NCBI GenBank assembly: GCA_043822005.1
Contig: JBDRCE010000031.1
Coordinates: 2,513-66,512 of the forward strand
DNA from: Pseudomonadota bacterium
GTDB lineage: Bacteria; Pseudomonadota; Alphaproteobacteria; Rhizobiales; Rhizobiaceae
Direction: 5' to 3'
Length of the DNA: 64,000 nucleotides
In this document: positions 3,179 through 17,887 of the stretch, piece by piece
How the letters are laid out: each line of letters begins with the position of its first letter
Position numbering within the stretch: position 1 is the stretch's first letter
The notes under the pieces: generated by a model
The model's input: only the letters and a program-made list of their open reading frames with translations
What the model was told of the DNA's origin: nothing
Databases searched by the model: none
Translations under genes and position numbers: made by a program

Positions 3179-6100
3179 ATGGAGGTGGCGAAGTCAATTC
3201 GCGCCTGCCCGGCCTTCCTGTCCGCAATCGGTTGCAAAGTCACAAGTCACACGGTTAGGCTGCCGCGCGGATTCTCCCCGCCGCATGGGGCCAATGCTTT
3301 GAGCCAGTTACTGGTCCAGCAATACCTGAACGAAATCGACCGGTTGCGGAAGTTCTCCGGCTCCGTGACCGAAGGCGTGATCTCGGAAGCGTTCAAGGAC
3401 CTGCTCAAGGCGTGGTCGCGGCAGTTGAACTGGCAGTTCGCGGCGCAGTTCGAATTCGCCTCGACGCAGAAGTCGCGCATCCGCCCCGACGGCACGATCT
3501 TCCATTCGCTCGGGCTGCCCTTCGGCTACTGGGAGGCGAAGGATACAGCCGACGACCTCGACGTCGAGATCAGGAAGAAGCTGGCGCGCGGCTATCCGCA
3601 GGACAACATCATCTTCGAGAATTCGCACACGGCCGTCCTGATCCAGGACCGGAACGAGGTGTTCCGCTGCTCGATGACCGACACGGACGAGCTGCTGAAG
3701 CTGCTCAACCTGTTCTTCAAATACGAGCGCGAGGAAATCCGCGAGTTCCGCAAGGCGATCGAGGAGTTCAAGACCTACCTGCCCTATGTGCTGGAGTCGC
3801 TGCGCGAGCGGATCGACACGGCCTACGACCAGAACGCCGATTTCCACGCCGCCGCGGAGAAGTTCCTCCGGCATGCGAAGGACACGATCAATCCCTCGGT
3901 CGGCGAGGCCGATGTACGGGAGATGCTGATCCAGCACATCCTGACCGAGGAGATTTTCGCCAACGTCTTCAACGAGAACGATTTCCACCGCGAGAACAAC
4001 ATCGCCAAGGAGCTCTACGCGCTGGAAGGAAAGTTCTTCACGGGGGCGGTGAAGAAGGAGACGCTCAAGGGGCTGGAACTCTACTACGCCGCAATCCGCG
4101 CCAACGCGGCCCAGATCTCCAGCCACGCCGAGAAGCAGCAGTTCCTCAAGCTGATCTACGAGAATTTCTACAAGGTCTACAATCCGAAGGCGGCAGATCG
4201 CCTCGGCGTCGTCTACACGCCGAACGAGATCGTGAAGTTCATGATCGAGGGCGCCGACTGGCTCACCCAGAAGCATTTCGGAAAAAGCCTGATCGACGAG
4301 CACGTCGAGATCCTCGACCCCGCGACCGGCACCGGCACCTTCATCTGCGAACTTTTGGAGCACTTTCGCGGCCAGCCGCGCAAGCTCGCGCACAAATACA
4401 AGAACGAGCTGCACGCCAACGAGGTGGCGATCCTGCCCTATTACGTGGCGAACCTGAACATCGAGGCGACCTATGCCGCGATCTCGGGCCAGTTCGCCGA
4501 GTTCCCCAACCTCTGCTTCGTCGATACGCTGGACAATGTCGCGGGGCTGGGCATCAAGGCCGGCCACCAGCACGACCTATTCGGCGCCATGTCGGAGGAA
4601 AACGTCGCCCGCGTGAAGCGCCAGAACGCGAAGAAGATATCGGTGATCATCGGCAATCCGCCGTACAATGCCTGGCAGGAGAACTTCAACAACCGCAACC
4701 CGAACCGCGCCTATCGGAAAATCGATGAGCGGATTGCGGAGACCTACGTACGTAAGGGCACCGCCCAGAACAAGAACTCGGTCTACGACATGTACACCCG
4801 GTTCTTCCGCTGGGCATCGGACCGCCTGCACGACGACGGCGTGTTGGCGCTCATCACCAATCGCAACTTCATCGAGAAGGCCGCCTTCGACGGCTTCCGC
4901 CGCTCGGTGGCGGACGAGTTCAACGAAATCTACCTCGTCGACCTCGGCGGCGATGTGCGCGCCAACCCGAAAATTTCAGGTACTAAGCACAATGTCTTCG
5001 GCATCCAGACCGGCGTAACGATCTCGCTGCTGGTGAAGCGGAAGGGCCAGAAAGGGTGCAAGATTTTCTACGTGCGACGGCCAGAATTCGACACCGCTGA
5101 CGACAAGCTCAACTTTCTGGCGAACACAGCCGCGTCTAAGATCGCGTGGCAACGGATAGAAGCCGATTCCAAGGCGGTTTGGCTCGACCAGACGGAGAAC
5201 GATTGGGATAGCTTTATTCCACTCGCCAGCAAGTCGGCCAAGGCGAACAAGACCGGCGCCAAGAATCAGGCGATCTTCCGCCTGTTCTCGAGCGGCTTGA
5301 AAACCCAGCGCGACGAGTGGGTGTATGATGTTTCGCGCGACGCGCTTGAAGCGAAGATGCGTTACTTCGTCGACGTTTACGAAGCTACAAGGAAAGATGC
5401 TAAGCATCCGGAAGGAGATACCGTCAAATGGGATCGGGAACTAAGTCGCTATCGGCTTAACAACATTCCTAAAGCATTCGAGACGTTCAAAATCCTTCCT
5501 GCTGCATTTAGACCGTTCACAAAGCGCTTCCTGTATTTTGACCAGCATTTCAATGGGATGACATACCAGCTTCCAGACATTTTTCCACCGAATGCCGAGA
5601 ATATCGTAATCAGCTTCAGCGGCATCGGCTTTCGGGCCGACTTCTGCGTTTCAAGCTGGGACGGACCGGTTGACCTTCACTACGGGGCTGCCGCTGATGG
5701 CTATCAGGTCGTTCCCCGCTATCGCTACGGCATGCCCGGCGAGCGCATCGACAACATCACCGACTGGGCGTTGAAGGAATTCCATAAGGCCTATGGCAAG
5801 GACGGGCGCGGCACGCCCGCGAAGGAGAGCGCGGCGGCGGAGCGCGCAATCTCCCCCCGTGTGGGGGAGATGGGCGGCAGCCCAGAGGGGGGCGCCACAG
5901 AGCGCGACACCTCCGGCGCGGCGGCGGCGGATGCGGTTGGAGACGCTGGCGGGACAGCGCCCCCCTCTGCCCTGCCGGGCATCTCCCCCACACGGGGGGA
6001 GATTGGCCAATCGCCTGGCGCCGCCCCCATGCAGATCGGCCAGTCGCGCAAGGCGCGCCAGCTCGGCAAGGACGACGTCTTCCACTACGTCTATGGCGTG

Positions 6101-6604
6101 CTGCACGACCCGGTCTATCGCGAGACCTATGCGCTGAACCTGAAGCGCGAGTTTCCGCGCATTCCGTTCTATCCGGACTTCTGGCGCTGGGCAGAATGGG
6201 GCGAGAGGCTGATGGCGCTGCACATCGGTTACGAGAGCGTCGAGCCCTGGCCGCTGGCGCGGCTCGACACACCGGACGAGAAGGCGCGGCAAGCCGGCGT
6301 CGCGCCCAGGGCGATGCTGAAGGCCGACCGGGACAACGGCATCATCAGGCTGGACTCGGAAACGCAATTGTCGGGCGTGCCCAAGGAGGCGTGGGACTAT
6401 CGGCTCGGCAACCGCTCGGGACTGGAGTGGATTCTCGACCAGTACAAGGAAAAGACGCCGAAAGATCCGACGATCCGCGAGAAATTCAACACCTACCGCT
6501 TCGCCGACTACAAGGAGAAGGTGGTCGACCTCCTGATGCGCGTGACGCGGGTGAGCGTCGAGACGGTGGCGATCACGGACGCGATGAAGGAGGCGAGGCA
6601 GTGA
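3179..6604 (+). CDS. Type ISP/IIG-like restriction-modification fusion: N-terminal PD-ExK nuclease motif, gamma-class N6-adenine methyltransferase, C-terminal type-ISP-like specificity region; no helicase module
   Basis: RPDG...GYWEAKD (PD-ExK). ILDPATGTGTF (SAM motif I). IIGNPPYNAW (motif IV). C-terminal block YRLGNRSGLEWILDQYKEKTPKDPTIREKFNTYRFADYKEKVVDLL. No Walker A between nuclease and methylase. Start uncertain (ATG 3179 or in-frame TTG 3299). Confidence 0.85.
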   Translation: MEVAKSIRACPAFLSAIGCKVTSHTVRLPRGFSPPHGANALSQLLVQQYLNEIDRLRKFSGSVTEGVISEAFKDLLKAWSRQLNWQFAAQFEFASTQKSRIRPDGTIFHSLGLPFGYWEAKDTADDLDVEIRKKLARGYPQDNIIFENSHTAVLIQDRNEVFRCSMTDTDELLKLLNLFFKYEREEIREFRKAIEEFKTYLPYVLESLRERIDTAYDQNADFHAAAEKFLRHAKDTINPSVGEADVREMLIQHILTEEIFANVFNENDFHRENNIAKELYALEGKFFTGAVKKETLKGLELYYAAIRANAAQISSHAEKQQFLKLIYENFYKVYNPKAADRLGVVYTPNEIVKFMIEGADWLTQKHFGKSLIDEHVEILDPATGTGTFICELLEHFRGQPRKLAHKYKNELHANEVAILPYYVANLNIEATYAAISGQFAEFPNLCFVDTLDNVAGLGIKAGHQHDLFGAMSEENVARVKRQNAKKISVIIGNPPYNAWQENFNNRNPNRAYRKIDERIAETYVRKGTAQNKNSVYDMYTRFFRWASDRLHDDGVLALITNRNFIEKAAFDGFRRSVADEFNEIYLVDLGGDVRANPKISGTKHNVFGIQTGVTISLLVKRKGQKGCKIFYVRRPEFDTADDKLNFLANTAASKIAWQRIEADSKAVWLDQTENDWDSFIPLASKSAKANKTGAKNQAIFRLFSSGLKTQRDEWVYDVSRDALEAKMRYFVDVYEATRKDAKHPEGDTVKWDRELSRYRLNNIPKAFETFKILPAAFRPFTKRFLYFDQHFNGMTYQLPDIFPPNAENIVISFSGIGFRADFCVSSWDGPVDLHYGAAADGYQVVPRYRYGMPGERIDNITDWALKEFHKAYGKDGRGTPAKESAAAERAISPRVGEMGGSPEGGATERDTSGAAAADAVGDAGGTAPPSALPGISPTRGEIGQSPGAAPMQIGQSRKARQLGKDDVFHYVYGVLHDPVYRETYALNLKREFPRIPFYPDFWRWAEWGERLMALHIGYESVEPWPLARLDTPDEKARQAGVAPRAMLKADRDNGIIRLDSETQLSGVPKEAWDYRLGNRSGLEWILDQYKEKTPKDPTIREKFNTYRFADYKEKVVDLLMRVTRVSVETVAITDAMKEARQ
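5848..6004. repeat. GC-rich palindromic (REP/MITE-like) element lying in-frame inside the methyltransferase ORF
   Basis: Arms 5848-5896 and 5957-6004 are reverse complements (44 of 48 positions by hand alignment). Each arm also contains its own ATCTCCCCC...GGGGGAGAT hairpin. Translated as ISPRVGEMGGSPEGGA / GISPTRGEIGQSP. Confidence 0.8.
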
Positions 6605-7092
6605 CGCCGCGGCGATTCAGGTTGCCGGACGCCATCGCCAACCTGATCGCGGCGCGCAACGAGCTGCGCGCCGGCTACAGCCGGTTTGGCCTGAGCTTCA
6701 CCTTGGACGGCAACCTCGTCGGGGACCTGGGCGAAGCCGTGGCGGCCGAGCTGTTTGGGCTCCGGCTGATTGAAACGAGGTCTGCGGCGGGGATCGACGG
6801 CTATGCGCCGGACGGCCGCACCGTGCAGGTGAAGGCGACCGGCACGGGACGCGGTCCCGCCTTCCGGCAAAGCGAGACCAAGGCCGATCACCTGCTTTTC
6901 TTCGACCTCGATTTCGAGGCCGCCTGCGGAGCGGTCGTGTTCAACGGGCCGGAGCACCTTGCTACCCAGACGCTGCCGCCAGTGTTCGACAAGCAGAGAA
7001 TGGTGTCCGCGTCGCAGATCCGCCGCGCCGACGCAAAGGTCGATGAGCGCGACCGGATGCGGATCGCGCGGCCGGACATGATGTTCGAATGA
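6601..7092 (+). CDS. Hypothetical protein, translationally coupled to the methyltransferase fusion; possible PD-(D/E)xK-like fold
   Basis: GTG at 6601 overlaps the upstream stop (GTGA). 163 aa. GIDGYAPDGRTVQVKATG resembles a D...(E/Q)xK nuclease core. The longer track ORF from 6196 overlaps the upstream gene and is rejected. Confidence 0.55.
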   Translation: MTPRRFRLPDAIANLIAARNELRAGYSRFGLSFTLDGNLVGDLGEAVAAELFGLRLIETRSAAGIDGYAPDGRTVQVKATGTGRGPAFRQSETKADHLLFFDLDFEAACGAVVFNGPEHLATQTLPPVFDKQRMVSASQIRRADAKVDERDRMRIARPDMMFE

Positions 7093-7134
7093 CGACCGGC
7101 GCGATCCGACAAGGCGACTGAAGGGGAAAGACCG

Positions 7135-8028
7135 ATGACGATCCCAGTTCCAAAAGTGCCCGAACTGTTCATGCCCACGCTCAGGGCGCTTGATGCGCTG
7201 GGAGGTTCGGGCGCCAATGACGAGATCCCGCCAAAGGTAGGCGAGATCATGGGGCTTTCGGAAGAGACCATGAGCTTCCGCCCGCCGGAGTGGAGCGTCA
7301 ACGTTTTCGATCATAGGTGCGGCTGGGCGCGCAGCTGGCTGAAGAACGCCGGCTATGTGCAGAACAGCGAACGCGGCGTCTGGACGCTGACGGCAGAAGG
7401 TCGCGACGCACTCACGCTGCCCGAGGCGGAGCTGATGCGGCTGGTGCGCAAGGCCGACGCCGATCTCCGCAAGGCGCGCTCGGCTGTCTCGCCCGATAGG
7501 TCGGGGGCCGCGTCGCCGACGCTCGAGGCCAGCGTGGAAGAGACTGAAGCCGCGTCGGCCTTACCACCGACGGATTGGCGCGAACAATTGCTCGATGTAC
7601 TCGTGGCGATTGAGCCGTCCGCCTTCGAAAGATTGTGTCAGCGCATCCTGCGCGAGTCCGGATTCGTCAAGGTGGAGGTGACCGGAAAGACCGGCGACGG
7701 CGGCATCGACGGGACTGGCGTTCTGAAAATGAACCTCCTGTCATTCCATGTGCTCTTCCAGAGCAAGCGTTACCGAGGTTCGGTCGGCTCCAGCGTGGTG
7801 CGCGATTTTCGCGGCGCGATGGTCGGTCGCGCCGACAAGGGCCTGATCATCACCACCGGCAATTTCACCGCCGACGCCAGGCGCGAAGCGGTGCGCGACG
7901 GGGCGCCGGCCATCGACCTGATCGACGGCGAGGCGCTGTGCGACTTGCTGAAGGATCTCGGCATAGGCGTGAAGGTAAGAATGGTGCCCGAGGTGACGGT
8001 GGACGCGGGCGCGTTCGCAAATTTCTGA
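7135..8028 (+). CDS. mrr: Mrr-family type IV (modification-dependent) restriction endonuclease
   Basis: N-terminal Mrr_N winged-helix-like region. C-terminal catalytic block FERLCQRILRESGF...GKTGDGGIDGTGVLK...FQSKRY...GLIITTGNFT. Confidence 0.9.
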   Translation: MTIPVPKVPELFMPTLRALDALGGSGANDEIPPKVGEIMGLSEETMSFRPPEWSVNVFDHRCGWARSWLKNAGYVQNSERGVWTLTAEGRDALTLPEAELMRLVRKADADLRKARSAVSPDRSGAASPTLEASVEETEAASALPPTDWREQLLDVLVAIEPSAFERLCQRILRESGFVKVEVTGKTGDGGIDGTGVLKMNLLSFHVLFQSKRYRGSVGSSVVRDFRGAMVGRADKGLIITTGNFTADARREAVRDGAPAIDLIDGEALCDLLKDLGIGVKVRMVPEVTVDAGAFANF

Positions 8029-8179: not shown

Positions 8180-11686
<3,507 letters not shown>

Positions 11687-11699
11687 GCGACCAGGCGCG

Positions 11700-11825
11700 G
11701 CCCGTCCTTCTCCCCCTGCGGGAGAAGGTGCCCCGACGGGGCGGATGAGGGGTATTGCGAGGAGCGCGACGACCCAAGGGTGGTGCGTTGGTGACCCATC
11801 CTCCTCTGGCCCACTCCTCGCAGCA
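11700..11825. repeat. REP-like GC-rich palindromic elements downstream of carB
   Basis: Hairpin CCTTCTCCC-cctgc-GGGAGAAGG at 11706-11728. 9-nt inverted pair TGCGAGGAG (11755-11763) / CTCCTCGCA (11814-11822). Confidence 0.55.
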
Positions 11826-11884
11826 CCCAACATCCTTCGATCCATGGCACCGTCGTGTTGTGGGTTAAGTTAAATAGATATAAC

Positions 11885-13693
11885 TCAAACTGAAAAGTGA
11901 TTTGAGTAACGCCAAGATATACCCCCTCCCTTCAAACGTCCGTCGAGCGTTTGATCTGCAATTTTACTGGAAGTGAGTCGCAGAACCATAACGGTCTTAC
12001 CTTCCTGCAGATCCAGCTCGCGTTGCTCCCCCCGTTCATCCTTCCACAGGCCTATTGTCTGTCTGGGTATGAAGTCATGCTGAATAAGCGACATCGTCTT
12101 GTTGCTTCTTTTGATCAAGCCTAAGCTAGTGACCGTAAGCACAGCCGTGCCGGGGTCGTCAGCAAGAGTAGACGCGTACCGTGCAGGCCACCTAACCTTT
12201 AATTGAGGACCATCCATTAGGATAGCAAATAGAAGATTAGGGGCAACAGATCTTAATATATCGTGACAGGGATCACTTCGTGCAAGATCTTCACAAATCA
12301 TGCTAGTAAATACGGACGAGCCGCGGTACTGAAAGAAATGTATTTCTCGTTGGGCTATATCGTGCTTTTCCCACCATGCGGCGACTGGTCGTAGGCCGAC
12401 AAGGTCATAGGTATCTATTTGCGAATTATCTAACCTCCACCGATGATGTTTTCGCCTGCTAGTTAATAGGTACTTGTTCTGCGCACTTTCACCTACCTCC
12501 ACACTCTCGTCTGTATACCAGAAAGCCGTCAGCACAAAATTTGCCTCCTCGCTTTCACAATTTGTCGAGCTTCCGCAAATAGCAAATTCGAGTTGAGGCT
12601 CAATGCTTTTTATACTCTTGCACAATACACTGAAAATCTCTTCAGTAAGTGAGTATTCTGGAAATACAATTGCGTTAATTACCTCTCCTTCTGGAAGTTT
12701 GTTTTTTGCGGACTGAACTGACGAAATTACACTATCTATCAGCTCCTCTTGGCGACGTAGCCAAGACTGTTCTACCCTAAAGCTTCCCCAATTTGGCCTG
12801 CGCTTGATATCAGGCAGCGCTGTTGCAATCGGTTGGAAGTTGTCTGAATCGAGTTCTAAGGGCAGTGCGCAAATGAGGACGTTAAGTGTCTCGTCGTCAC
12901 TACTGTGCGTAGCGATCTTCGGTTGCTGCCAATGGCATCGCACCGAGCCCGCGTGACCAAGATAGGCAACGTTCTTGGTTAAGTTGCGAAGTGTGCATCC
13001 AACTTGCGATACCCTATTCTTTGGCTGCACGCACGCCACGTCGGACGACGCAAGCTCGCCGAATGACGAGCGCTGGCGATCCGCCCTGAATCGGTTGGCG
13101 CCTAACAAATTTTCGATACGGAATGGATTGAGGTAAACCTGATGAAAGTAGTCGACCAGCCAGCGATCCGAGTGTTCCTTCGTTGGTGGCGATCCGATCC
13201 CCACACAAGCTTCATCTGCAGTGACAGCTAGCATTAGGACAGGCTTCCACCACTTCGGAACACTGCCCAGCGCGTCCTCATACATCTCGTAGCTCGACGC
13301 TCGTATTTTCTCCCGTCTCGATCGTACGATCTTATCCCACAGTAGGTTTACGAAGATCGGAACGGATGCTCGGCGTGACCAACGCTCCCCCTCCGTCACG
13401 CATTTAGTCCGTTCCTCCATCGACAAGCAGAAATGTAGTTTCGCGGGTCCCACCGGATCCGCCGGCCTCGTATAATCGGGATCCGGATCAAAGTAGTTGA
13501 GTAGTCCTGAAAGATGAATCAAGTGAGCAGCAGCAGCAAACACGTCCGTAGGCATCGCAGGTGCCACTGCCCATTTTCGTAATCCCGCTGGAACCTTCAG
13601 GCCTGATGGCGGCACGGTTCCTGAGGGAAACAGGGTAGCCAATGCCTGCCCCACGGTCATCGCCCGCGGAGATAGTAAAGTTGTTCGTGTCAT
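11885..13693 (-). CDS. Hypothetical 602-aa protein: unknown N-terminal domain fused to a nitrilase-superfamily (C-N hydrolase)-like domain
   Basis: Long uninterrupted ORF in AT-richer DNA. NAIVFPE(346)YSL, TSRRK(415)HHRW and FTSMIC(467)EDL occur in the canonical E-K-C order, followed by APNLLFAIL. Confidence 0.7.
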   Translation of the reverse strand: MTRTTLLSPRAMTVGQALATLFPSGTVPPSGLKVPAGLRKWAVAPAMPTDVFAAAAHLIHLSGLLNYFDPDPDYTRPADPVGPAKLHFCLSMEERTKCVTEGERWSRRASVPIFVNLLWDKIVRSRREKIRASSYEMYEDALGSVPKWWKPVLMLAVTADEACVGIGSPPTKEHSDRWLVDYFHQVYLNPFRIENLLGANRFRADRQRSSFGELASSDVACVQPKNRVSQVGCTLRNLTKNVAYLGHAGSVRCHWQQPKIATHSSDDETLNVLICALPLELDSDNFQPIATALPDIKRRPNWGSFRVEQSWLRRQEELIDSVISSVQSAKNKLPEGEVINAIVFPEYSLTEEIFSVLCKSIKSIEPQLEFAICGSSTNCESEEANFVLTAFWYTDESVEVGESAQNKYLLTSRRKHHRWRLDNSQIDTYDLVGLRPVAAWWEKHDIAQREIHFFQYRGSSVFTSMICEDLARSDPCHDILRSVAPNLLFAILMDGPQLKVRWPARYASTLADDPGTAVLTVTSLGLIKRSNKTMSLIQHDFIPRQTIGLWKDERGEQRELDLQEGKTVMVLRLTSSKIADQTLDGRLKGGGISWRYSNHFSV

Positions 13694-13961
13694 TCTTTGT
13701 ATGTTCCCGCCCTTTACGGTAGTCTGCCATACAACCTTCCCATATTGTCAACCAAATAGTCATCTTTAGAACATACTCTAGGCACGAAACTCTATGATTA
13801 TTCACAACATAGATGTTGCACAGAGGCAACACACCATAGAAATTCGGTCACAATGATGCCTCTTTTCCACCACAGTCATGCTCCAAATGAACGTCGGCCC
13901 TTGGCATCTCTGCCCATAGCAGGTTCACTACCCTCACACCCATCAACGCGCGAGATGCGAA

Positions 13962-14177
13962 ATGTCTGCTGTTCTCTCTAAGAGCCTCAGGGATGAGGTC
14001 ATCGCTGAAGCTGACAAGACCAAGGATGCGACGTTAAAGCTGGTCGCAGGGATGTATGCGGAGCAGACACTTCGCGGCATGGAGCGTGCTAATAATAAAG
14101 TCGACAGGGCTACAAAAAAGCATGTGAGAACGGCTTTTCGTGCCGCTCTGCTGCGAGAGTTTTCAAGCGAGTTCTAA
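13962..14177 (+). CDS. Hypothetical 71-aa protein, probably helical
   Basis: ORF in the same AT-richer islet, divergent from the 602-aa gene across a 268-bp AT-rich spacer. No motif. Confidence 0.4.
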   Translation: MSAVLSKSLRDEVIAEADKTKDATLKLVAGMYAEQTLRGMERANNKVDRATKKHVRTAFRAALLREFSSEF

Positions 14178-14511
14178 AACCGAACTCCGGGCTGAGGCCG
14201 TCCTAAAGCGGGCTGACGCACGATCTATGGCATGGTGACGGATGCGTCACCCGGGACATTACCGCACAATCAAGGGCACCAAGGTCACGCGCAAGGCCTC
14301 GGGATCGCGCGGGGGCGCGGCGGCCACGCGCTAAAGGCCATTCGGATATGAAGAAGGCGTGACGTCTCCCGTCGCTGCGCCCCCGTCACCCGAGGACGAT
14401 GAAGGCGCTAGGCGCCAACCCCCACCACCCCGACACCCCGCCGCACCCCTTGCACTCCCCCCGCGCCCGACGCTAGAAGGCCGTGGGCGCTGGGCATGGA
14501 ATGGAGTATCG

Positions 14512-14907
14512 ATGTCGATCGCCCGATCTGTGGCCGCGCCGCGCGTCCGCCGCCTTGCATCCTTCGCGACGAAATACGCGCCGGCAGCCGCCTGCCTGCT
14601 GGCCCTTGCCGCCTGCGCCTCCGCGCCTGCCCCCACGTCCACCGCGCTGCCCCGGTTCGACCCGAAGGCCAGCTCGCCCGAATGCCAGCGGGTGCGCGCG
14701 GCCGCCGCCGCATGGGAGGCCAACAAGAAGCCGCCGATGAACCTGGCCGTCGGCGCGCTGATGGGCCCCTACGGGCTGGCGCTCGCCGCCGCCTCCAGGG
14801 AGCACCAGGCCAAGCAGCGAAAACTCCATGCCCGCGACGTCCACCTCGCCTGTTCCAGCGCGCCCCTGCCGAGCAACCTGCAGGTCACCCCCAACGGCAA
14901 CTCGTGA
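14512..14907 (+). CDS. Putative lipoprotein
   Basis: MSIARSV...CLLALAAC lipobox-like signal. Start chosen at the internal ATG 14512 of track ORF 14359..14907. Confidence 0.55.
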   Translation: MSIARSVAAPRVRRLASFATKYAPAAACLLALAACASAPAPTSTALPRFDPKASSPECQRVRAAAAAWEANKKPPMNLAVGALMGPYGLALAAASREHQAKQRKLHARDVHLACSSAPLPSNLQVTPNGNS

Positions 14908-15016
14908 GGCTCGGCGCGCCGCGCTGAGTCCTGCCGCAGCGTAAGGCGCGGCGCCGACATTGCGTCCGCCAGGCTCCCGCCCCTTTCGGCCACCCAACCC
15001 CTCCACCAGATGCGGA

Positions 15017-15144
15017 CGCCCCCTCCACCACGCTTCGCGTGGTCCCCCTCCCCCGCTTCGCAGGGGAGGATCGCGCACCACCGCCGCGCCCTATCCTCCC
15101 CCGTTTACGGGGGAGGGGAACCGCCGAAGGTGGTGGAGGGGGCG
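15017..15144. repeat. Composite REP element (nested palindromes)
   Basis: Perfect 15-nt terminal inverted repeats CGCCCCCTCCACCAC (15017-15031) / GTGGTGGAGGGGGCG (15130-15144). They enclose two hairpins, CCTCCCC..GGGGAGG and CCTCCCCCGtttaCGGGGGAGG. Confidence 0.75.
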
Positions 15145-15322
15145 CGTGCGGAGCGTGGTAATGGCTCCCTCCAAGGGCGATAACGCCACCCCCGTGCATC
15201 GATTTCCGCCCCCAATCCCGCCAACCCCCTTCCCCACTCGCCATTCGCCACTCGCCACCCGCCTTTTCGATCCACACCCTTCCACCTCTCCGCGACACTG
15301 TCCGCGATGAAAGGAGGCGCGG

Positions 15323-16315
15323 GTGAGCGGCTGGAACGGAACGAGTAACTGGGAAAGCGGGATCGACTGGAACCTCGTGATCGAGCGCAATGTCCGGCTG
15401 CTCGGCCCCATCGTCGCCACGCTGTGCATCATGGCCGGGCTCCCCGTCTCCTCGCCCCGATGGGCGAGGCGAGAAGCGGTGGCCGCAGGCTACGAAAAGC
15501 CCCAAAATGGGCTTTTCGAGCGACCGAGCGCCCGGAGCCATAGCGGAGGGCCGGGTTCGGCGCGGCTCGCCTCTTCCTCGCCCCGATGGGGAGAGGATGG
15601 TCCGGCTCGCCGAGGCGCAGCCGAGGCGTTAGCCGGACCTGGTGAGGGGGATCTGTCCCCGACGCTCCCCCGCCGCGTCCACCGCGCCGTCTATCGGCTG
15701 CTGCGCGCGGCCGAAGCGGCGGTGCGGCGGCTGATCATCGTGGTGGGCCGCGACATGGTCGCGGCGGCGCCCGCATTGCCGCCGGTCCAGCCGAAGCGCG
15801 GCCCGCTCGTCACGCACGTCCCCATCGTCGTCCCCGGCCTTGGCCTGGCACTCGGCCCCGCGGCCGCCGAAACCCCTGCCCAACCGACGGCCCAGCGCAA
15901 ACTCTCCTTCCCTCTCCTCGACCCGCTGCCAGACCCCGACGCGCCGCCGTTCCACATCCGCTCGTCTGGCGTGCCGCGCATCTCCATTCCCGGCTGGACG
16001 CCGCTCTTCGCGATCGCGCCGAAACACGACCCCTCGCCCAACGATCCGATCGATGCCGGATACCTTCGCCTGCGTCTAGAAGCCTTGAGCCGGGCGCTCG
16101 GCGACCTGCCCCGCCAGGCCATGCGGCTGGCCCGCTGGCGCGCCCGCTGCGAGGCTCTGCGCAAGACCGGCCGCGCCGGGTCCGTCTCGCCGCTGCGTCC
16201 CGGCCGCGCCTATGGCCTCCACCGTCCCGGCTCGCCAAGGCGCGAGCACGAGGTCGACGATGTCCTGAGAGACCTGCACTATTTCGCCTACGAAGCGCGG
16301 CGCGATACATCATGA
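15323..16315 (+). CDS. Hypothetical protein carrying an internal REP-derived segment
   Basis: 330-aa ORF. The segments before about 15443 and after about 15658 look protein-like to me. The middle 72 codons are made of palindromic repeat DNA. Confidence 0.5.
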   Translation: MSGWNGTSNWESGIDWNLVIERNVRLLGPIVATLCIMAGLPVSSPRWARREAVAAGYEKPQNGLFERPSARSHSGGPGSARLASSSPRWGEDGPARRGAAEALAGPGEGDLSPTLPRRVHRAVYRLLRAAEAAVRRLIIVVGRDMVAAAPALPPVQPKRGPLVTHVPIVVPGLGLALGPAAAETPAQPTAQRKLSFPLLDPLPDPDAPPFHIRSSGVPRISIPGWTPLFAIAPKHDPSPNDPIDAGYLRLRLEALSRALGDLPRQAMRLARWRARCEALRKTGRAGSVSPLRPGRAYGLHRPGSPRREHEVDDVLRDLHYFAYEARRDTS

Positions 16316-16340
16316 GGGAGCCGACGGTCCACCCCACCCG

Positions 16341-16526
16341 CGCCGTCATCCTCGGGCTTGACCCGAGGATCTGCCTTCGCTCGTCCGTACCTGAGCCGCC
16401 CTTCACATCAACGCCGGCAGATCCTCGGGGTGAGATGGCGGTTCGCCCATCGGGCGAATTGCAAGGTCCAGTGGACCTTGCAAAGCCAATCGAACGCCCG
16501 AAGGGGCCGGCCCGAGGATGACGGCG
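16341..16526. mobile_element. MITE-like element with perfect 17-nt terminal inverted repeats
   Basis: CGCCGTCATCCTCGGGC (16341-16357) and GCCCGAGGATGACGGCG (16510-16526) are exact reverse complements. Internal hairpin ATCCTCGGG..CCCGAGGAT at 16348-16370. No ORF inside. Confidence 0.6.
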
Positions 16527-16568
16527 TGCTTATTGTCCGGACGCCTGCCCTACTGCCCTACTCCCGCC

Positions 16569-17078
16569 TCAGTGCCCCTTCGGCTTCGCGTCATGCCCGC
16601 CGGCGGGCTCGCCGCCGCCCGCCTTGACCTCGGCATGGTCGATCTCGGCCAGCATGCGCTCGCAGGAGGCTTCCGTCACCGTGCCGGCGCGGCGCAGTGC
16701 GGCCTGCCACGACATCGACACCAGCATCCCGTCATGCGCCGCCTCGGCGTCGGACGCGGCCTTCAGCGCCACCACCTCGAGCCCGCCGCAGCGGGATTTG
16801 AGCAGCTGCGCCAGCGCGAAACTGTAGGTGGCCGAGGTTTCGGCGTCGGCTTCCGCCTTCAGCGCCGCGACCTTCTGCGGGTCGACCCCGCCATGGCCCT
16901 CGGCCTCGGCAGGCGCTTCCGGCGCCGGCGTCAGGAAATAGGCCCAGGCCCCGTAGCCGCCCCCGCCCAGCACGATCAGCGGCACCAGCGCGAACAGGAG
17001 GAGCTTCACCTTCGAGCGCTTCTTCGGCGCGTCGCCTGGGGTCGCGGCGGGCGCCGCCTTTGCTTTCGTCTTGGCCAT
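16569..17078 (-). CDS. Membrane-anchored hypothetical protein
   Basis: Start at MAKTKAKAAP. Lys-rich N-terminus followed by one TM helix (LLLFALVPLIVLGGGGYGAWAYF). Confidence 0.55.
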   Translation of the reverse strand: MAKTKAKAAPAATPGDAPKKRSKVKLLLFALVPLIVLGGGGYGAWAYFLTPAPEAPAEAEGHGGVDPQKVAALKAEADAETSATYSFALAQLLKSRCGGLEVVALKAASDAEAAHDGMLVSMSWQAALRRAGTVTEASCERMLAEIDHAEVKAGGGEPAGGHDAKPKGH

Positions 17079-17185
17079 GCCCCCTTGTGCGCACAAAGGC
17101 GTTAAATCGGCGTAATCGCGAACGCGCGAATGTTTGCCTTTCGGCACTGCGGGCGTATGTTTCAGGCAACGGGTGGAGGGCGCCG

Positions 17186-17887
17186 ATGGGCGTCACGCGC
17201 AGGTCGGTCCTGGGACTGGGCATCGCCGCGGCGGCGCTGCCGGGCCTGTCGCGCGCCGCGCCCGCGGCACCCGCCGCCTTCCTCGGCCAGTCGGGCGAGC
17301 CGCAGACCGGCCGCCTCGTGCTCGGCCTGCTCGTCGCCGACGACGAGACGGCGCTCCGCCAGGCGGTCTTTGACCTGCGGACAAAACTCTCCTACCGGCG
17401 CGTGCTGCGCCAGCGCTCGACCGACCGCTACAAGCTCGCCTTCGCCCGCGCGCTGATCGATGCGCTCGCCGAACGGCCCGACACGCGCTTTGCCGCCGTC
17501 GCCTTCGACCTGCCGCCCTGGCCGAAGCCCGGCGCGGCGCGCGACCGGCTGGTGCGCGAGGCATTCGCCGAGGCGCTGGCCGCAGCACCTGCGGGAGCCG
17601 CGGTCAGCCTCGTCGACAATGGCGACCGCGCCGCCATCGGCACGCTGGTCCATGCCCTCCCGTCGGCACAGTCGGCGCGCGTGCTGCGCTTTGCCCGGAT
17701 CGGCGACGACGATCTGTTGCAGGTCGCAGCCCTCCTCACCGGGCTCGCCAATCCGTCGCGGGCGCGCAGCCGCTCCACCAAGGGCGAGCTCGTGGCGCAT
17801 CTGAGGCTCTCGCTCGGCGTCGGCGAGATTTCGGCGCGGGCGCTGTCGCGCCATCCGCGGTTTTCGGTGCGGTCGGTGAAAGTGTAA
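17186..17887 (+). CDS. Hypothetical exported protein with twin-arginine signal
   Basis: MGVTRRSVLGLGIAAAALPGLSRA Tat-type signal at the internal ATG 17186. Confidence 0.55.
   Translation: MGVTRRSVLGLGIAAAALPGLSRAAPAAPAAFLGQSGEPQTGRLVLGLLVADDETALRQAVFDLRTKLSYRRVLRQRSTDRYKLAFARALIDALAERPDTRFAAVAFDLPPWPKPGAARDRLVREAFAEALAAAPAGAAVSLVDNGDRAAIGTLVHALPSAQSARVLRFARIGDDDLLQVAALLTGLANPSRARSRSTKGELVAHLRLSLGVGEISARALSRHPRFSVRSVKV

Follow-up and report, generated by a model that had tools for sequence, protein, structure and literature searches.

Nitrilase-superfamily domains are a recent addition to the known components of bacterial immunity, and they have so far been found only appended to reverse transcriptases (RTs), in the DRT1 and UG5 systems, or to NACHT proteins. 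In DRT1 (defence-associated RT type 1) and UG5 the nitrilase domain is the presumed effector; what it hydrolyses is not yet known, and the authors' suspicion falls on essential metabolites with an amide or amine group (PMC13275509, PMC13436386). In the bacterial NACHT (NLR-related) anti-phage proteins, a CN-hydrolase is one of several swappable effector domains (bioRxiv 10.1101/2022.07.19.500537). Here we describe two divergently oriented genes, one encoding a 602-amino-acid (aa) protein with a predicted nitrilase (C-N hydrolase) domain and the other a 71-aa protein, which together form a low-G+C islet after carB in a 64-kb stretch of contig JBDRCE010000031.1 from a member of the Rhizobiaceae (the whole stretch is called the window below). 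An initial annotation, made without database searches, had proposed that this islet is a horizontally acquired one- or two-gene conflict or defence module. It had also noted that nitrilase-type domains are fused to DRT1 RTs, and had placed these RTs in UG class 1, which is not correct, as DRT1 is a class 3 UG/Abi RT (PMC13275509). We find that the gene pair is real, well defined and previously unannotated, and that an undescribed conflict or anti-phage system is a credible, though unproven, explanation for it. The module and its parts are located as follows.

11855..14200, no strand: low-G+C islet, equivalent to the two-gene module; the lowest G+C of any 2.3 kb in the window
11687..11860, + strand: GC-rich hairpin spacer from the carB stop codon to the islet (left border); minimum free energy -86 kcal/mol, z = -2.9
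11885..13693, - strand: large gene, 602 aa (591 aa from the alternative start M12), encoding an N-terminal region and a predicted nitrilase-superfamily domain
12899..13693, - strand: N-terminal region, residues 1-265, with a predicted helical domain (about 1-190) and a beta-rich linker (about 191-265)
11888..12898, - strand: predicted nitrilase / C-N hydrolase superfamily domain, residues 266-602
13694..13961, no strand: AT-rich divergent intergenic region, 268 bp, 46% G+C, the presumed site of both promoters
13962..14177, + strand: small partner gene, 71 aa, predicted helical, pI 9.8, divergent from the large gene

The large open reading frame (ORF) is a real gene, since it has 575 homologues in a database clustered at 90% identity and its family amounts to 1,661 clusters at 50% identity, nearly all of about 600 aa (the median is 609 aa in the 259 family members that we retrieved). 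All 575 homologues are named 'hypothetical protein' and none has a Pfam domain. Family members share only 30-50% identity overall. The protein itself matches nothing in Pfam, NCBIfam, PHROGs or the sequences of the PDB. It contains neither a Walker A motif nor a hydrophobic segment, features whose absence suggests that it is probably soluble and cytoplasmic.

The predicted structure of this protein relates it to a known enzyme superfamily. An AlphaFold2 model built from an alignment of 40 sequences (A1) has a predicted local distance difference test score (pLDDT) of 88.6 and a predicted template-modelling (TM) score of 0.90. When the model was compared with the PDB using Foldseek, 64 structures matched at E < 1e-3 (best E = 6e-8), and the top 50 all belong to the nitrilase superfamily, as the initial annotation had predicted from motifs. 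The matches include AmiF formamidase, Nit2/Nit3, beta-ureidopropionase, the glutaminase domain of NAD synthetase, vanin, N-terminal amidase and carbamoylases. They span about 340 columns, a length consistent with residues ~266-602, over which the single-domain amidases reach target-normalised TM-scores of 0.45-0.57 against the predicted structure. The model places residues ~266-602 with high confidence in the four-layer alpha-beta-beta-alpha fold of nitrilases. The catalytic residues of the superfamily have the following counterparts.

12656..12658, - strand: codon of E346, putative catalytic Glu in the FPE motif, invariant in 259/259 homologues
12449..12451, - strand: codon of K415, putative catalytic Lys in the KHHRW motif, invariant in 259/259
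12368..12370, - strand: codon of E442, candidate second catalytic Glu in the WWE motif, 25 residues before the Cys, invariant in 259/259
12293..12295, - strand: codon of C467, putative nucleophile in the ICEDLAR motif (ACA on the + strand, coding TGT), invariant in 259/259

The motifs that the initial annotation had picked out, namely NAIVFPE(346)YSL, TSRRK(415)HHRW, FTSMIC(467)EDL and APNLLFAIL (residues 484-492), are all present at the residues it gave, and the triad that they define is thus preserved throughout the retrieved family, as is E442. From its spacing, we take E442 to be the likely fourth member of a tetrad; in AmiF and DCase the second catalytic Glu, to which it would presumably correspond, is spaced in this way. 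H416, W419, E468, D494, Q497, R501 and W502 are also invariant in the 259 members. The conservation of tetrad and motifs at such low overall identity argues for an active enzyme.

In contrast to the structural comparison, searches at the level of sequence gave no significant link to the superfamily. The Pfam CN_hydrolase model (PF00795) does not match the window's protein at E <= 1, and among 40 homologues it matches a single one (E = 0.17). Neither hmmsearch of PDB sequences with the A1 profile nor phmmer against the PDB returned anything. In an hhalign comparison with Escherichia coli YafV, FPE346 falls on PE, K415 on the catalytic Lys and C467 (in ICEDL) on the catalytic Cys (in VCYDL), but the score was not significant, whether YafV was represented by its single sequence or by an alignment of orthologues. 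The YafV homologue search gave close orthologues only, and so no diverse nitrilase profile, and the loci that we fetched yielded no CN_hydrolase genes with which to broaden it. Given the lack of a PF00795 match, the family is a very divergent branch assigned by structure: its predicted fold and its tetrad place it in the nitrilase superfamily, though it is too divergent for the Pfam model.

The N-terminal 265 residues have no such relatives. The initial annotation had been unable to assign them, and our searches agree, with no Pfam match and, for a model of residues 1-265 alone (pLDDT 81), no relative in the PDB according to Foldseek (best E = 4). The full-length model likewise has no relative among viral predicted structures. 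Two residues of this region, D160 and K225, are nearly invariant in the family. Residues 1-265 are thus, on the strength of the model, a candidate new protein fold without known relatives.

The initial annotation had left open whether the module has one gene or two; we find that it has two. The 71-aa ORF belongs to a family of small genes that, at all loci where we found it, lies upstream of the large gene in divergent orientation, at a distance of 160-370 bp. In DNA of high G+C, where the background is 70%, a divergent ORF by itself tells nothing, and we therefore used profile searches controlled with decoys: 101 candidate upstream ORFs were mixed with 1,850 decoys taken at random positions of these loci. 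Searches with jackhmmer from nine seeds matched only ORFs adjacent to the large gene, and linked the window's ORF to a subgroup from Rhodobacterales. A pooled profile converged on 26 entries, namely the window's ORF and ORFs from 25 of the 77 fetched loci, without a single decoy (0/1,850), and its next eight matches below threshold are also all adjacent to the large gene. By eye, we count about 40 loci with the small gene. Gene callers predict it in GCA_043826205.1 and, as an ORF of 61-65 aa at the same divergent position, in L092, L094, L095, L100 and L101. Since this small-ORF family is found only beside the large gene, the unit is a two-gene module. A tblastn search with the 71-aa sequence matched only copies of the same genome, and the suggestion that the ORF is not conserved was rejected in view of the fast-evolving family revealed by the profile and positional analyses.

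The small proteins, with a median of 69 aa, would be helical judged from sequence. Their conservation is mainly N-terminal, with S, T or P always at position 2 (39/39) and S or D usually at position 6 (33/39), as counted from start sites chosen partly by eye. Net charge ranges from -13 to +17. Compared with the PDB and Pfam, the small-protein profile gave matches at chance level only and no signal of a helix-turn-helix (HTH) or ribbon-helix-helix (RHH), and PADLOC-DB v2 contains no match. The possibility that the small protein is an RHH repressor was considered and found unsupported; its charge is highly variable. Such widely varying sequence and charge are as expected of a co-evolving partner in a protein-protein interaction, rather than of a DNA-binding protein.

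The module differs from its surroundings in base composition. From the carB stop codon at 11686, G+C drops sharply until about 14200. The islet (11860-14200) has 49.9% G+C, compared with 67.0% for carB and 70.9% for the right flank (14201-17000), and sliding-window values are 0.42-0.55 within it and 0.65-0.75 on both sides. It is the lowest-G+C 2.3-kb stretch of the window, about 4 standard deviations (sd) below the mean (64.5%, sd 3.6%), and it coincides exactly with the two-gene module. Most of what the initial annotation had said of this region is borne out by calculation, including the drop in G+C relative to the flanks (67-71%), the hand count of about 42% G+C for positions 12241-12300 (41.7%), and the placement of the 602-aa ORF, the 71-aa ORF and the AT-rich spacer between them. 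Its 'REP cluster' after carB stands in part. The spacer at 11687-11860 is indeed GC-rich and rich in hairpins, but it is not demonstrated to be a repeat, because its 33-nt core and a 13-nt sub-motif each occur only once in the window. At the borders of the islet we found no flanking direct or inverted repeats, no tRNA and no integrase. The intergenic region at 13694-13961 contains a motif, TTG(A/T)CAA, that is common to five related loci; it has no match to the sigma-70 consensus or to Rfam. Within the large gene itself, the nitrilase half has 46.4% G+C and the N-terminal half 55.2%, a difference whose median across the family is only 1.7 points, and this contrast could reflect a mosaic origin of the window's copy.

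The distribution of the family also points to mobility. In a scan of one genome per species, homologues of the large protein occupy 106 loci among about 185,000 species genomes, in a patchy pattern. The hosts are nearly all Alphaproteobacteria (Hyphomicrobiales, Rhodobacterales, Sphingomonadales, Caulobacterales and Rhodospirillales), with a few Gammaproteobacteria and one Verrucomicrobia metagenome-assembled genome (MAG). The large gene lies below its flanks in G+C at most homologous loci (median -4.4 points), and even the most frequent family of neighbouring genes is present at 7 of 80 loci at most. In Bradyrhizobium sp. BWA-3-5 a segment of at least 21.7 kb that includes the module is present both on a plasmid and on the chromosome (L048, L057), in copies that are 99.995% identical. 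The patchiness, the low G+C relative to flanks, the heterogeneous neighbours and the enrichment of hallmark genes described below show that this is not a syntenic core gene, and the islet after carB is, as the initial annotation had supposed, horizontally acquired. One further context, L086, was rejected as a separate case, its DNA being identical to that of the window.

In seven genera of Rhodobacterales (L005, L012, L016, L017, L018, L022, L036) the module adjoins asd, which encodes aspartate-semialdehyde dehydrogenase. Between these genomes asd is about 82% identical and the module's enzyme about 48%, which suggests either fast evolution of the enzyme or repeated replacement at a hotspot.

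Three observations concern individual copies of the module. In the Bradyrhizobium segment, 207-bp direct repeats (8699-8905 and 12779-12984, 94% identical) bracket it. In an unrelated alphaproteobacterial MAG (L058:3092-8880) the module lies directly upstream of a carB gene that is 69% identical to the window's, and thus on the side opposite to that in the window, either by coincidence (rough p ~0.04) or perhaps through a weak site preference. Lastly, one of the four viral contigs with a homologue, a lambdoid prophage or satellite from IMG/VR (L185:9401-11457), encodes a distant homologue of 577 aa, in which the tetrad is intact and the KHHRW and ICEDLAR motifs are kept. Its N-terminal ~200 aa are unrelated, and it is followed by an overlapping 108-aa ORF, with no divergent small gene, so that the family may also have an alternative architecture.

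Seven of the eight genomic contexts that we inspected by means of gene calls and Pfam labels are mobile-element or defence regions.

L100: island with an integrase, the small ORF, the enzyme, an AlpA-like HTH protein, Prim-Pol and HsdM/S/R (Type I restriction-modification, RM)
L101: Tn7-like element with TniQ, TniQ and TniB
L094: conjugative element, in which the upstream neighbour matches the PADLOC candidate-system model PDC-M34B
L102 (Jannaschia): conjugative element, adjoining an integrase, AbiE, a UvrD-PDDEXK protein and a Bil-like E1/E2/JAB set
L095: island with two DNA methyltransferases, a PIN protein, and HerA-like and IetA-like ATPases
L092/L093: prophage-like block in R. leguminosarum
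L096: lone insertion amid metabolic genes

A systematic comparison supports this impression. About 30 hallmark proteins of mobile elements or RM systems were taken from the inspected contexts and sought within 8 kb of the module and of carB in control loci (L103-L182). They were found at 21 of 76 module loci, compared with 1 of 80 controls (odds ratio 30, Fisher p = 8e-7), although the hallmark library is small and a housekeeping control anchored on carB may understate the genomic background. The enriched proteins are mostly integrases, type IV secretion system coupling proteins, ParB/ArdC and Type I RM proteins. The neighbourhood enrichment for which the initial annotation had proposed a check is thus present, and it is mainly one of mobile-element genes.

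Defence-type genes occur near several copies. In the Jannaschia locus, the stretch right after the module (L102:12836-21851) is a dense defence island encoding AbiEii/DUF6088, the UvrD-PDDEXK protein (1,137 aa), Bil-like Multi_ubiq/E2 and JAB/ThiF proteins with BubE, and this locus also has a neighbouring toxin-antitoxin pair of the TacAT type. In the window, the region just upstream of carB (3179-8028) encodes a 1,141-aa Type ISP-like RM enzyme (with coupler, N6 methyltransferase, Eco57I and Type_ISP_C domains), a DUF6998 protein and an Mrr-like endonuclease, in genes of native-like G+C. As these lie opposite the islet, carB is bracketed by defence-type genes on both sides. Downstream of the islet (14512-17887) are genes for a 131-aa lipoprotein and then for proteins of 330, 192 and 233 aa, without Pfam matches, in a region that is very GC-rich (about 70-75%). 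In 25 of the 80 control loci, a query with an FtsH-like AAA protease matched an ORF no more than 8 kb from carB, which may reflect either a conserved synteny of carB with an AAA+ gene or generic AAA similarity.

We favour, tentatively and judging it slightly more apt to fail than to hold, the hypothesis that the two genes of the islet form a horizontally mobile module for conflict or defence, whose effector is an amidase. The large cytoplasmic protein would be an active C-N hydrolase of the amidase type, with a Glu-Lys-Glu-Cys tetrad, and its N-terminal region would probably control activation or access to the active site. The small divergent protein would be a partner dedicated to this enzyme, which it would most likely silence as an inhibitor or regulator. 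Upon a trigger, which could be phage, foreign DNA or loss of the partner, the enzyme would become toxic by hydrolysing an essential amide-bearing metabolite or deamidating proteins, and so arrest the cell or the invader. A more specific scheme, which is rather doubtful, would make the module the first known case of an RT-independent nitrilase immune system. Here, the N-terminal region, with its new fold, would be a sensor guarding the stand-alone amidase together with the hyper-variable small protein, whose conserved N-terminus would plug the active site or be processed by it. Infection would then free the enzyme to destroy an essential amide-bearing metabolite, leading to abortive infection. 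Because many invariant Arg and His residues surround the tetrad, this metabolite could be of the nucleotide or NAD type.

Several findings, besides the limits of the hallmark comparison given above, weigh against a role in conflict or defence. The hallmarks that are enriched are mostly of the kinds listed above, and status as mobile cargo is therefore shown more firmly than defence as such. The 145 nearest neighbours of the module represent 127 Pfam families, most of them housekeeping, and hidden Markov models of defence genes match only about 10 of these neighbours. Against PADLOC-DB v2 the large protein itself has only a chance match (Cas56g, E = 0.03). The CN_hydrolase assignment depends on predicted structure and motif order, because the sequence-level link is not significant. 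The divergent gene order is unusual for toxin-inhibitor pairs. As to mobility, the asd site shared by seven Rhodobacterales genera could indicate long vertical residence, and no empty site is shown for this genome: in look-ups with exact proteins, every contig encoding the flanking lipoprotein also has the islet, and the nearest carB in a metagenome collection (84% identity) lacks flanking synteny to the window.

The pair could instead be an addiction module similar to toxin-antitoxin systems, in which an amidase toxin and a labile small antidote stabilise the islands, conjugative elements and plasmids that carry them, rather than act against phage. The pairing of a large gene with a small, fast-evolving partner would fit this explanation, as would the fact that the module is often carried by mobile DNA (conjugative elements and integrase islands, a plasmid and a Tn7-like element), and the TacAT-type pair and AbiE near the Jannaschia module indicate that such cargo co-occurs. 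However, type II toxin-antitoxin pairs form a single operon, whereas this pair is divergent at all loci, without co-transcription. Moreover, the small-protein profile revealed no DNA-binding fold of the antitoxin type, many copies stand alone on the chromosome, where there is no element for them to stabilise, and 602 aa is very big for a toxin. We thus consider addiction unlikely.

Alternatively, the enzyme could serve metabolism or detoxification, as an accessory amidase whose substrate is an amide, nitrile or carbamoyl compound from the environment. The small protein would then be a regulator or chaperone, and the gene would spread horizontally as an aid to niche adaptation. Its closest structural relatives are indeed metabolic (AmiF formamidase, Nit2 omega-amidase, beta-ureidopropionase and carbamoylases), and several loci lie amid metabolic genes, for example beside a hydantoinase gene or in the stable position beside asd in Rhodobacterales. 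However, no transporter, regulator or pathway gene is conserved beside the module, the distribution is rare and patchy, and the enzyme evolves fast relative to its neighbours (48% versus 82% identity for asd). The enrichment near mobile-element and RM genes also speaks against this explanation, and an extra 265-aa domain and a hyper-variable partner are atypical of catabolic amidases, so that a metabolic role appears quite improbable.

The proximity of ArdC, ParB-like, relaxase and coupling-protein genes in conjugative elements might further suggest an establishment or anti-defence factor, with which an incoming element modifies or inactivates part of its host, for instance a protein or a defence signal. 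This is very unlikely, as most copies are outside recognisable conjugative elements, only 4 of 2.9 million viral contigs have a homologue, and in L100, L102 and L095 the module lies within clusters of defence genes.

Finally, the superfamily members Nta1 and Lnt act on protein N-termini. The notion that the enzyme amidates, deamidates or acylates the conserved N-terminus of the small protein to yield a modified peptide or protein draws on that conservation and on the N-terminal amidase among the fold matches, but is highly improbable in view of the divergent transcription, the start sites chosen partly by eye, and the finding that no exporter, protease or other maturation gene is conserved beside the module.

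If the hypothesis of a conflict or defence module is true, this unannotated family of about 1,660 clusters would offer a much simpler, two-gene system for questions about the substrates of defence nitrilases and how these enzymes are silenced. Even if the module proves to serve addiction or metabolism, it defines a new and deeply divergent nitrilase branch, a candidate new fold (residues 1-265) and a new family of small proteins. The large family, its N-terminal region and the small-protein family are all uncaptured by current Pfam, NCBIfam and PADLOC models.

In comparison with toxin-antitoxin pairs and the controller (C) proteins of RM systems, the module shares a small, fast-evolving partner beside a potentially harmful enzyme on mobile DNA, but it differs in its divergent arrangement, in the absence of an HTH or RHH signal from the partner's profile, and in a partner whose charge is not consistently basic. 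With established nitrilase-superfamily amidases (AmiF, 5g3p/2e2k; Nit2, 2w1v/4hg3; beta-ureidopropionase, 2vhh; YafV) the enzyme shares the predicted alpha-beta-beta-alpha sandwich, the Glu-Lys-(Glu)-Cys residues in canonical order and at the canonical secondary-structure positions, and the logic of the FPE, K-x-H and I-C-x-D/E motifs. It is distinguished from them by the family-specific motifs KHHRW, ICEDLARSDPCH and DGPQL..RWPARYA, by the extra 265-aa N-terminal region, the dedicated small partner gene and carriage on mobile elements, and by a divergence too great for Pfam CN_hydrolase or PDB profile searches. Like the bacterial NACHT proteins, the module would use a C-N hydrolase as effector domain, but it lacks a NACHT or other P-loop domain (no Walker A motif and no Pfam NACHT match). 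Lastly, it resembles DRT1 and UG5 in having a nitrilase-superfamily domain with an intact triad as the presumed effector of a mobile immune gene. It is not a member of either: Pfam and PADLOC scans give no RT domain, no alpha-repeat domain and no DRT match, no RT gene is conserved beside the module, and both the N-terminal region and the divergent two-gene architecture are different. The module matches no PADLOC model, in keeping with the initial annotation, which did not recognise its architecture from any described defence system.

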